Source: an uncultured Clostridia bacterium (GTDB lineage: Bacteria; Bacillota; Clostridia; Christensenellales; UBA1242). From it: a stretch of DNA of 52,725 nt. Positions 43,442 through 44,569 of this stretch are shown piece by piece. The stretch is taken from assembly GCA_944360025.1 (NCBI GenBank), contig CALVTF010000001.1:1-52725 (forward strand), read 5' to 3'. The translations under genes were made by a program, and so were the position numbers. The notes under the pieces were generated by a model. That model saw only the letters and a program-made list of their open reading frames with translations, had not been told where the DNA came from and did no database searches. The number at the start of each line of letters is the position of its first letter. Positions within the stretch are counted from its first letter, which is position 1.

Positions 43442-44569
43442 ATGGAAGATATTGAACTTCTAAACAATACCTTTGACCTTTATATGAAAAAGGGGAAGGA
43501 GGCAAAAGAAAAAGGAAATTACGCTCTTGCAAAGCGTAATTTTATGCTTGCTGGCGAGACTATGATGAAGATTGCAAAAGTAAGTCAAGGCAAGTTAAAA
43601 GAAGTAAGACTTAATCGGGCGAAGCGAATTGTCGAACTGTCAGAGCGTATAGGTCTAGAAAAAGAAAAGAAAAAAGAGGAAAAAGGTGAAGATGAAGAGG
43701 ATGAGGTAAAAAAATGGCAACAAGCACAGATTCCTAACATTCATTTTTCGGATGTAGCCGGGCTAGATGACGTTAAAAAAGCAATCAAGATTCGAATGAT
43801 TAATCCAATTCTTTACCCTGATAAGTATAAACTTTACAACAAAAAAACAGGCGGAGGAGTGCTTTTGTATGGACCTCCGGGAACAGGAAAAACCATGATT
43901 GCAAAGGCTATTGCTTGCGAAGTTGGAGCCAAATTTTATGCTGTGAAAGGCTCAGATATTGTTTCCAAATGGGTGGGCGAAAGCGAGCAAAATATCAATT
44001 CTCTTTTTGAAGAAGCAAATAAGCAAGACCGTTCCATTATTTTTATTGATGAAATGGACAGTCTTTTAGGAAAACGTGGACAAGATATTCATAATGACAA
44101 ACGTGTCAATGAATTTTTACAACAAATTGATGGCTTTGCTGGTCGAAACCCTAACCTTTTACTGTTGGGTGCAACCAATAGACCTTGGGATATAGATTCG
44201 GCCGCCACTCGTTCAGGTCGTTTTTCACAAAAGATATACATACCACTTCCTGATGAGAAGGCAAGAAAGTTTATGTTAGAAAAAAATATGAAAAATGTGC
44301 CGGTTTCTAAAAATTTTGATATTGACAAGATTGTAAAACAAACAGAACTTTATAGCGGGGCGGACATAGAAGAACTTTGCGACCGTGCAAAAGACGAGCC
44401 TCTTCTTAAAGCGATTGAAACTGATAGTGTCATAGAGGTAACCAATAAAGATTTTGACAATATCTTAAAAATTTTCCCGCCAAGTGTAACAGAAAGCGAA
44501 CTTAAAAAATTTGCAGATTATAACAATGAAATTGATAGTTTGATTAAAAATAGAAGAAAGAAAAAGTAG
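43442..44569 (+). CDS. Vps4-like AAA ATPase (meiotic clade) with N-terminal MIT-like domain
   Basis: N-terminal ~75 aa form a three-helix MIT-like region ([30 protein letters not shown]...[12 protein letters not shown]), followed by an acidic linker. Walker A GPPGTGKT (43871-43894), pore loop SKWVGESE, Walker B [40 protein letters not shown] compares with Vps4 [25 protein letters not shown]. Confidence 0.82.
   Translation: [375 protein letters not shown]

Follow-up and report, generated by a model that had tools for sequence, protein, structure and literature searches.

Does a bacterium encode an ESCRT-III protein side by side with a Vps4-type ATPase? The question is raised by a gene at positions 43442-44569 of a 52,725-nucleotide stretch of DNA from an uncultured Clostridia bacterium (Christensenellales; UBA1242), namely positions 1-52,725 of contig CALVTF010000001.1 in assembly GCA_944360025.1, hereafter called the window. 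A preliminary description of this DNA had presented the gene as a bacterial Vps4-like AAA ATPase bearing an MIT-like domain at its N-terminus. According to recent papers, the pairing of ESCRT-III with Vps4 is confined to archaea and eukaryotes (PMC10936438, PMC7619361), and of a Vps4-like ATPase a 2025 review states that it "appears absent in bacteria" (PMC7619361). The only catalogued bacterial pair of genes with an MIT-Vps4-like member is reported to have lost snf7, and such bacterial pairs have been read as transfers from archaea with displacement of snf7 (Ravi et al, 2024, PMC11237479). We propose that the product of the gene is probably the ATPase component of a bacterial system for membrane remodelling of the ESCRT-III/Vps4 type; genes for a Snf7-type protein and an MIT-AAA ATPase stand here side by side in an operon conserved in many gut Clostridia. 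No description of this locus type was found in a full-text literature search, which had subscription journals outside its coverage. The ATPase gene and its parts are the following (aa, amino acids; pLDDT, predicted local distance difference test).

43442-44569, plus strand: MIT-AAA ATPase gene, an open reading frame (ORF) from ATG to stop, 375 aa
43442-43651, plus strand: MIT-like three-helix domain, aa 1-70 (AlphaFold2, Foldseek, hhalign)
43652-43726, plus strand: charged disordered linker, aa 71-95, rich in K, E and D (pLDDT below 50 for aa 73-91)
43727-44251, plus strand: AAA large subdomain, aa 96-270 (Pfam AAA, motif alignment)
43871-43894, plus strand: Walker A
43964-43987, plus strand: pore loop 1
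44036-44059, plus strand: Walker B
44171-44224, plus strand: second region of homology (SRH) with Arg257 and Arg260 (motif alignment)
44252-44476, plus strand: four-helix lid without a beta-domain insertion, aa 271-345 (AAA_lid_3, DSSP of the model)
44477-44569, plus strand: C-terminal helix and stop codon, aa 346-375, carrying a DF..L...PSV....l..F element

The ATPase ORF is a real and conserved gene, since more than 6900 database proteins are homologous to it at E<=1e-10 and the same position is occupied in 79 of 80 related genomes. The best 120 homologues are 76-100% identical, one close match being labelled "ATP-binding protein [Candidatus Caccovivens sp.]". The ORF listing returns exactly the coordinates and the length given in the preliminary description, and all the sequence strings cited there lie within this ORF: Walker A GPPGTGKT at aa 144-151, the pore loop SKWVGESE at aa 175-182, Walker B IIFIDEMD at aa 199-206 and the SRH block at aa 244-275. 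The protein is matched by Pfam AAA (E=5e-42) and AAA_lid_3 (3.6e-8), and the motif residues, R257 and R260 among them, do not vary over 31 relatives. Among full-length NCBIfam models the best is that of CdvC (213.4 bits), which aligns aa 5-362 with model positions 5-366 of 370. An AlphaFold2 model built on a 31-sequence alignment (mean pLDDT 75.6) contains a helix at aa 351-374, the C-terminal helix for which such a check had been suggested, and the acidic linker announced after the N-terminal domain corresponds to a K/E/D stretch at aa 73-95 that is predicted to be disordered. It had also been suspected that the beta-domain is missing, as in CdvC. The last two lid helices are separated by 19 residues in the ATPase, 21 in CdvC and 57-63 in eukaryotic Vps4; the Vta1-binding beta-domain is therefore absent. 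The protein thus displays the architecture of archaeal CdvC/Vps4: an MIT domain and a linker precede a single AAA cassette with intact Walker A/B, an aromatic pore loop and a pair of arginine fingers, and a lid devoid of the beta-domain and a C-terminal helix complete it. The Pfam Vps4_C model scores 21.1 bits against a cutoff of 21.3, and many close relatives have a precomputed PF09336 match. The C-terminal DF..L...PSV element, found in Cdc48-D2, katanin and spastin as well, was dropped as a Vps4 marker on account of its presence in the D2 domains of VAT and p97. Several more distant relatives (L057, L058, L060, L061, L064, L067, L074, L076, L079) possess a C-terminal ATPase extension of 110-140 aa, composed of a P/E/K-rich linker and a beta-rich domain of ~70 aa (e.g. 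...IEFYIEGDFNGITVKIDGKRYTCSKRIQNWITEELEITESGSYILEIYAEK...), which has no counterpart in the window protein.

The N-terminal domain is the part of the protein that would connect it to ESCRT-III. In the full-length model it consists of helices at aa 4-23, 27-47 and 51-68. Since the Pfam MIT model was silent and the N-terminal region added only ~10 bits to the CdvC hidden Markov model (HMM) score, aa 1-78 were modelled separately. The isolated domain was predicted by AlphaFold2 with a pLDDT of 91.8 and a predicted template modelling score of 0.80 as three helices of ~20 residues (2-23, 27-46, 50-69), that is, as the three-helix bundle expected of an MIT domain. This model was compared by Foldseek with 350,542 PDB chains. 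Ranks 1 and 2 are taken by 2w2u, an archaeal Vps4 MIT domain with an ESCRT-III MIM peptide, rank 3 by 1yxr (VPS4A MIT; root-mean-square deviation, rmsd, 1.4 Å) and rank 4 by 2v6y (the Vps4-like MIT of S. solfataricus). Further matches are 2k3w, 2jq9, 2cpt and 4u7y (MIT of VPS4A/B, several with CHMP or IST1 peptides), together with the MIT domains of spartin, NRBF2, yeast Vps4, katanin and MITD1. MIT domains predominate among the highest-ranked matches, with template modelling scores of 0.66-0.70 and E-values (0.02-1.3) that are weak, as expected for a helical domain of 78 residues. This result is accompanied by a profile comparison in hhalign, in which the N-terminus of the family aligns in register with a verified MIT alignment (P=3.4e-5, probability 72%; reversed control 0.042). 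With human VPS4A and VPS4B, the BLASTP alignments start as early as residue 7 and therefore span the MIT region. These comparisons and the predicted model identify the N-terminal domain as an MIT fold, nearest to the Vps4/CdvC type. The MIT domain of the preliminary description is thus retained on the grounds of fold, Foldseek ranking and profile-profile alignment, and the HMM searches that were to accompany it gave nothing for MIT and a score just under threshold for Vps4_C.

Immediately upstream of the ATPase lies a small gene, which we call ccB. Its coordinates, and those of its C-terminal tail, are given here.

42827-43423, plus strand: ccB, 198 aa, with the N-terminus MAWFKSKK, a putative helical hairpin core, an acidic linker and a C-terminal amphipathic helix; CHMP2/Vps2-like
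43364-43408, plus strand: MIM1-like tail of ccB, aa 180-194 (E-D-I-D-K-E-I-E-K-L-R-K-K-I-E), delimited by column conservation over 87 members

The nature of ccB was recognised only after an exhaustive HMM search, because a diverse alignment was needed. This search yielded 354 cluster representatives of the ccB family, and 87 diverse members were aligned. Pfam Snf7 matches 14 of these 87 (best E=9.6e-7), and no other family recurs. The family profile matches human CHMP2A (7zcg_B) in the PDB with E=5.6e-6 over 137 positions (7-143); CHMP3, CHMP1B, Vps24 and CdvB are colinear with it at sub-threshold level, as part of eight further ESCRT-III chains in all. None of the PspA/Vipp1 structures in the PDB is matched by the profile, and the PspA_IM30 model of Pfam is likewise unmatched. 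On account of the Snf7 matches, the CHMP2A match and the colinear ESCRT-III chains, ccB is assigned at the level of family profiles to the ESCRT-III/Snf7 superfamily, on the Snf7 side rather than the PspA side. The "neighbouring ESCRT-III-like proteins" mentioned in the preliminary description are therefore recovered, at the family level, in the gene adjacent to the ATPase.

The tail of ccB provides a second possible link between the two proteins. Its hydrophobic residues are spaced at 0, +4, +7 and +11, position +8 is basic (I182, I186, L189, R190, I193), and acidic residues precede the helix. A strict MIM1-like pattern is present in 27 of the 87 family tails, with 3.1 expected from shuffled tails, which corresponds to a ~9-fold enrichment. 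The MIM1 motif binds the MIT domains of Vps4, and the tail of ccB has the same spacing. We propose that the tail is a putative docking site for the MIT domain of the ATPase.

The gene preceding ccB may encode a second protein of the same kind.

42212-42823, plus strand: ccA, 203 aa, with the N-terminus MWWPFKRNKFKK, a helical core, a conserved IYG..DDELLAMFE and an acidic tail

No similarity between ccA and ccB is seen with shallow profiles. A deeper ccA profile aligned with the ccB/ESCRT-III profile gives P=3.3e-4 and a probability of 38% over 164 colinear columns (reversed control 0.28), and ccA is like ccB in its size and in its N-terminal aromatic/basic motif. Elsewhere, in lineages other than this one, the small protein that accompanies ccB is clearly its paralogue (L087_204, probability 95%). 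It can be suggested that ccA is a candidate divergent ESCRT-III paralogue. Distant ccB/Snf7-like proteins are also found in a different setting, fused C-terminally to FtsK_alpha and an FtsK/SpoIIIE motor (P0419, P0426, P0430, P0431, P0493) or fused to a RuvB-like AAA module with a RuvB_C winged helix (P0425, P0429, P0432, P0436, P0485). Two of these motor fusions also contain a NERD nuclease domain; no transmembrane (TM) segment was found in this Pfam analysis, and the ESCRT-III-like module may stand in for the membrane anchor of the motors. The neighbour of one such fusion (L084, 245-2089) is a Sel1 and trypsin-like protein.

The association of ccB with the ATPase is widely conserved. A scan with the ccB profile, limited to one genome per species, gave 80 loci, nearly all from metagenome-assembled genomes of uncultured gut Clostridia (Christensenellales-like, Ca. 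Caccovivens, Ca. Coproplasma). In this set ccB is present 80 times, the AAA gene 79, ccA 77, a gene for an SPFH protein with zinc ribbons (SPFH-ZnR) 75, a small TM protein 68, a large membrane protein 67 and a 115-aa protein 58, and the order is kept. The association extends to five distant loci whose ccB relatives have 25-38% identity: an AAA gene of 375-404 aa, belonging to the same MIT-AAA family, is adjacent in four of the five, and a Band_7_1 gene lies upstream in four of the five. Full-length identity with the window protein is 35-40% for three of the distant ATPases, which also keep R-P-G-R-F and share its N-terminal domain (profile probability 94-97%). Some distant loci have arrangements of their own. 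Of the loci L088 (700-3594) and L087 (4521-5735), one has two AAA genes flanking the ccB-like gene, and the other encodes an ATPase paralogue without the SRH arginine fingers (MS--RL), which, judging from this motif, may be catalytically inactive. L081 (4443-7828) contains Band_7_1, a 96-aa protein, a 219-aa protein, a ccB-like protein, a RelA_SpoT protein in the place of the AAA gene and then a phosphofructokinase; L082, a second locus with the same RelA_SpoT protein, also has a polyphosphate kinase.

A number of observations weigh against the ESCRT-III/Vps4 reading and have to be set beside this evidence. The Pfam models MIT, Snf7 and PspA have no match on the window proteins themselves, nor does MIT match the isolated N-terminus of the ATPase; ccA and ccB, as single sequences or shallow profiles, have no meaningful match in Pfam, NCBIfam or the PDB. 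A 16-sequence profile of ccA finds no ESCRT-III match in the PDB or Pfam, and the case for this protein is a weak one. The CdvC score of 213.4 bits lies far below the equivalog cutoff of 650 bits set by NCBIfam. As shown by the distant locus with a RelA_SpoT protein in the ATPase position, the ESCRT-III-like pair can occur without the ATPase. The trees presented below are distance trees whose sampling is limited to 21 reference domains, archaeal Vps4 being represented by Sulfolobales alone and bacterial Vps4-like ATPases by the present family alone. The remaining points concern the ATPase module. Scored alone, it reaches 212.7 bits with CDC48, 202.9 with CdvC, 190 with FtsH and 186 with PAN, and its best sequence and fold matches are the D2 domains of p97/VAT. 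Its SRH has the classical spacing R-(S/P/A)-G-R-F, kept in 11 of 11 family members and in four of five distant relatives, without the two-residue deletion (R--RF/L) found in 10 of 10 references of the meiotic clade. Together with a pore loop identical to that of VAT-D2, these features of the module would suit a generic Cdc48-like unfoldase engaged in quality control or extraction, whose helical N-domain would be an adaptor unrelated to ESCRT-III and whose gene neighbourhood would be mechanistically meaningless.

We consider such an unfoldase improbable, for reasons that come from the phylogeny, the architecture and the gene linkage. Firstly, the PDB phmmer list and the whole-model Foldseek list are saturated by p97, the scores of two-domain proteins are inflated, so that Vps4 cannot be ranked from these lists, and a genuine CdvC query also places p97 straight after its own orthologues; the p97-rich rankings are therefore not diagnostic and were dropped as a test of clade. 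Secondly, neighbour-joining trees were computed on 232 columns with 200 bootstraps and under 13 combinations of column set and distance correction. The references matched exactly to database entries were yeast Vps4, human VPS4A and VPS4B, spastin, Msp1, ATAD1, NSF, E. coli FtsH, M. jannaschii PAN, human p97, yeast Cdc48, T. acidophilum VAT, Rpt6 and Mpa; three archaeal CdvC/Vps4 references were taken from PDB alignments, the katanin reference is approximate and B. subtilis FtsH was left out. The bacterial ATPase family is monophyletic in 100% of the bootstraps, and 76% of them (74-86% across the 13 settings) unite it with the meiotic clade, which comprises Vps4, CdvC, katanin, spastin and Msp1/ATAD1. 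It is never placed with Cdc48-D2 (0% in every analysis). When the relatives of 35-40% identity from the distant loci are added, the monophyly of the family stands at 90% and the grouping with the meiotic clade at 76%; the latter falls to 47% with the addition of two very divergent paralogues. The family is nested within Vps4/CdvC in only a few of the bootstraps (values of 0-8% and of 2-9%), and its usual place is as sister to the whole meiotic clade. Thirdly, the protein has a single AAA cassette and an MIT fold, not a double-psi beta-barrel N-domain followed by D1 and D2. Lastly, its linkage to ccB, a protein with a MIM1-like tail, is kept in 79 of the 80 genomes and extends to distant relatives.

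The affinity of the family to the meiotic clade is thus moderately supported by the trees, and the family represents a separate lineage, probably basal to this clade and not inside Vps4. The basal position fits the retained R-x-G-R-F spacing, which is one character agreeing with it. These results bear out the preliminary description in its main points, with some reservations. A branching with FtsH, Cdc48, ClpB or another non-meiotic clade, which it had named as contrary to its proposal, did not occur. The SRH block that it had nearly superimposed on Vps4 is present and differs at the diagnostic position, R-S-G-R-F in the window protein as against R-R-F in Vps4. The likeness of the pore loop to Vps4 is real and does not discriminate, and this loop was dropped as a Vps4 marker for its identity with VAT D2; a 'PW' motif was dropped as well, since it is not kept in distant family members. 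The term "Vps4-like" can therefore be kept as regards the MIT domain, the absence of a beta-domain and the meiotic affinity, and the family would stand outside the Vps4 subclade, orthology to Vps4 or CdvC being unsupported.

What, then, would be the membrane process served by the ATPase? The other genes of the operon bear on this question.

40615-48331, plus strand: seven-gene operon, with gaps of -1 to 18 nucleotides and strong Shine-Dalgarno sites for most genes
40615-41433, plus strand: first gene, 272 aa, SPFH/Band_7_1 protein whose C-terminal part has two zinc ribbons (Band_7_1 5.6e-13, Zn_Ribbon_1 1.7e-16, DZR 3.8e-11)
41443-41856, plus strand: small membrane protein, 137 aa, with a single TM helix at the N-terminus (aa 2-20) and, after it, a charged helical stretch (hydropathy)
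41856-42203, plus strand: soluble protein, 115 aa, similar to the TPR-like N-terminal portion of the 1253-aa protein
44570-48331, plus strand: 1253-aa membrane protein (Pfam GLUG 4.5e-6, weak TPR; hydropathy, CxxC scan)

No terminator-like site was found on the plus strand between the operon genes. The ATPase gene begins 18 nucleotides downstream of ccB, and its stop codon abuts the start of the 1253-aa gene (0-nucleotide gap). The latter protein comprises a zinc ribbon (CNNC..CLFC), ~800 aa of cytoplasmic TPR/helical sequence, three TM segments (aa 814-899) and an external GLUG domain of ~350 aa. Neither the 137-aa membrane protein nor the 115-aa protein has a match in Pfam or NCBIfam. In L062, L068 and L073 the best match of the 115-aa protein is the start of the large TPR-TM gene, and this protein looks like a detached copy of the N-terminal TPR-like module.

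The Band_7_1 domain and zinc ribbons of the first gene are also the domains of YdjI and YdjG, encoded in the pspA operon of B. subtilis, where YdjI localises PspA (Makarova et al, 2024, PMC10936438). It is possible, although we would not call it probable, that the locus is devoted to envelope-stress repair of the PspA/YdjI type. Coiled-coil carpets like those of PspA/LiaH would then stabilise the membrane, the SPFH-ZnR protein would recruit them and the ATPase would recycle or regulate them, with no role in fission, division or vesicle formation. The host is a walled bacterium and the locus lies on chromosomal DNA, because the window also encodes a class B penicillin-binding protein with a PASTA domain (3966-5864, plus strand), a tRNA synthetase, an anaerobic ribonucleotide reductase and a cardiolipin synthase; in the presence of a peptidoglycan wall, there is no obvious need for ESCRT-driven division. 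The stress-linked RelA_SpoT protein in the ATPase place of one distant locus also points in this direction. On the other hand, the ccB family matches Snf7 and CHMP2A and has no match to PspA_IM30 or to PspA/Vipp1 structures, and the PspA systems described so far have no MIT-AAA partner (PMC11237479, PMC7619361). This alternative concerns the biological role and is compatible with a Vps4-like mechanism of the ATPase.

The wider surroundings of the operon contain several further genes. A 4732-aa ORF (13663-27861, plus strand) has no Pfam match at E<=1e-5, and a cardiolipin-synthase-like protein with two PLD domains (27861-29312, plus strand) overlaps it by one base. A bacterial PH-domain protein (38642-39028, plus strand) is encoded near the operon in 46 of the 80 genomes, often on the opposite strand. 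A gene for a TraG/VirD4-type coupling protein (30068-32080, plus strand), ~10 kb upstream, is possibly the remnant of a conjugative element. The presence of this last gene, the PADLOC match of the ATPase to IetA (2.3e-39, 133.9 bits) and its NCBIfam match to IteA_antiphage (115 bits) would be in line with a system for defence against phages that is centred on an AAA ATPase of the IetA/IteA kind, in which the neighbours would serve as effectors or sensors. We regard this as very unlikely. The IetA and IteA scores are far under those of CdvC and CDC48 (>200 bits) and reflect the common AAA core, the IteA cutoff being 510 bits; none of the six neighbours matches any PADLOC model, and no IetS-like protease is present. 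In addition, the position on the chromosome is stable, the ABC transporter genes that flank it being the same in 57 of the 80 genomes, unlike the variable placement of defence islands. The defence reading was rejected, since it has only the generic IetA/IteA similarity of the AAA module and no PADLOC match among the neighbours.

The ESCRT-III/Vps4 reading can be further appreciated by comparison with known systems. The archaeal CdvC/Vps4 proteins of Sulfolobales (4lcb, 4d80, 4lgm; MIT 2w2u, 2v6y) have the same architecture and a length of ~370 aa; they provide the best full-length curated HMM and the top fold match of the MIT domain, and in most archaeal loci an ESCRT-III gene lies directly upstream, as it does here. 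They differ in that their identity with the window protein is 35-37%, its score is 213 bits against the 650 required and its SRH reads R-S-G-R-F, as opposed to R-R-F in CdvC; the family is nested with CdvC in 2-18% of trees, the host is bacterial, and the locus has SPFH-ZnR and TPR-TM-GLUG proteins as partners in place of CdvA or a winged-helix-domain partner. Eukaryotic Vps4, VPS4A and VPS4B share the MIT fold (rmsd 1.4-1.9 Å to VPS4A MIT), the SKW-x-GESE pore loop, the 'PW' after sensor-1 and 37-41% identity including the MIT region, whereas the window ATPase has no beta-domain and thus no Vta1/LIP5 site, does not have the SRH deletion and falls outside the Vps4 subclade. Cdc48/p97/VAT D2 score highest against the ATPase module by HMM, BLASTP and Foldseek and share R-x-G-R-F and the DF..L...PSV element with it, but these proteins have two cassettes instead of one, a double-psi barrel N-domain instead of MIT and 0% of bootstraps in common with the family.

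Among bacterial systems, the dyad described by Ravi et al (2024, mSystems; Opitutus ACB74714.1) also consists of an MIT-AAA gene followed by a large TPR and multi-TM protein. The comparison relies on the published description, without alignment of the ATPase sequences; the difference is that here, in Clostridia, a Snf7-superfamily gene is found directly upstream, which single-sequence Pfam searches miss. The PspA-YdjGHI system of B. subtilis likewise encodes an ESCRT-III-superfamily protein together with Band_7_1 SPFH and zinc-ribbon modules, but its operon has no AAA ATPase and ccB matches Snf7/CHMP2A, not PspA_IM30. As for the archaeal 'Meth_adaptin' ESCRT loci (Makarova et al, 2024), compared by their description, no adaptin-appendage, GOLD or ProX components were detected in the present locus. 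The same authors recognise Vps4 by an MIT domain or by neighbouring ESCRT genes (PMC10936438), and the window ATPase presents both.

From established Vps4/ESCRT-III biology, the following mechanism can be hypothesised. We propose that ccB, probably along with ccA, uses its N-terminal aromatic/basic motif to polymerise on the cytoplasmic side of the membrane, and that the polymer is positioned with the help of the SPFH-ZnR protein and of the large TPR-TM protein, in the way that YdjI positions PspA in B. subtilis. The MIT domain of the ATPase would dock on the MIM1-like C-terminal helix of ccB, and the ATPase would hexamerise and thread the subunits through its K-W (Lys-Trp) pore loops. The polymer would in this way be turned over or disassembled, which may drive membrane repair, vesicle formation or a fission step.

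At the evolutionary level, a more far-reaching proposition can be put forward, which we consider rather unlikely: the ATPase lineage would predate the meiotic clade, the MIT domain and the partnership with ESCRT-III would have been gained before the SRH deletion that is characteristic of Vps4, katanin, spastin and Msp1, and many bacterial 'MIT-AAA + TPR-TM' loci would hide undetected ESCRT-III genes. If this were true, the pairing of ESCRT-III and Vps4 would be older than the archaeal ancestor or of bacterial origin, and not an early archaeal invention. The locus also indicates that divergent ESCRT-III proteins escape neighbourhood surveys based on domain libraries. If the proposed system is correct, the turnover of ESCRT-III-superfamily polymers, a long-standing question that extends to PspA and Vipp1, would become testable in bacteria, and ESCRT-III, Vps4, an SPFH protein and a membrane anchor would form a small set of components suited to reconstitution. 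With its ancestral geometry of the arginine fingers, the ATPase lineage would, in that case, help to root the Vps4/meiotic clade and to date the partnership between ESCRT-III and Vps4.

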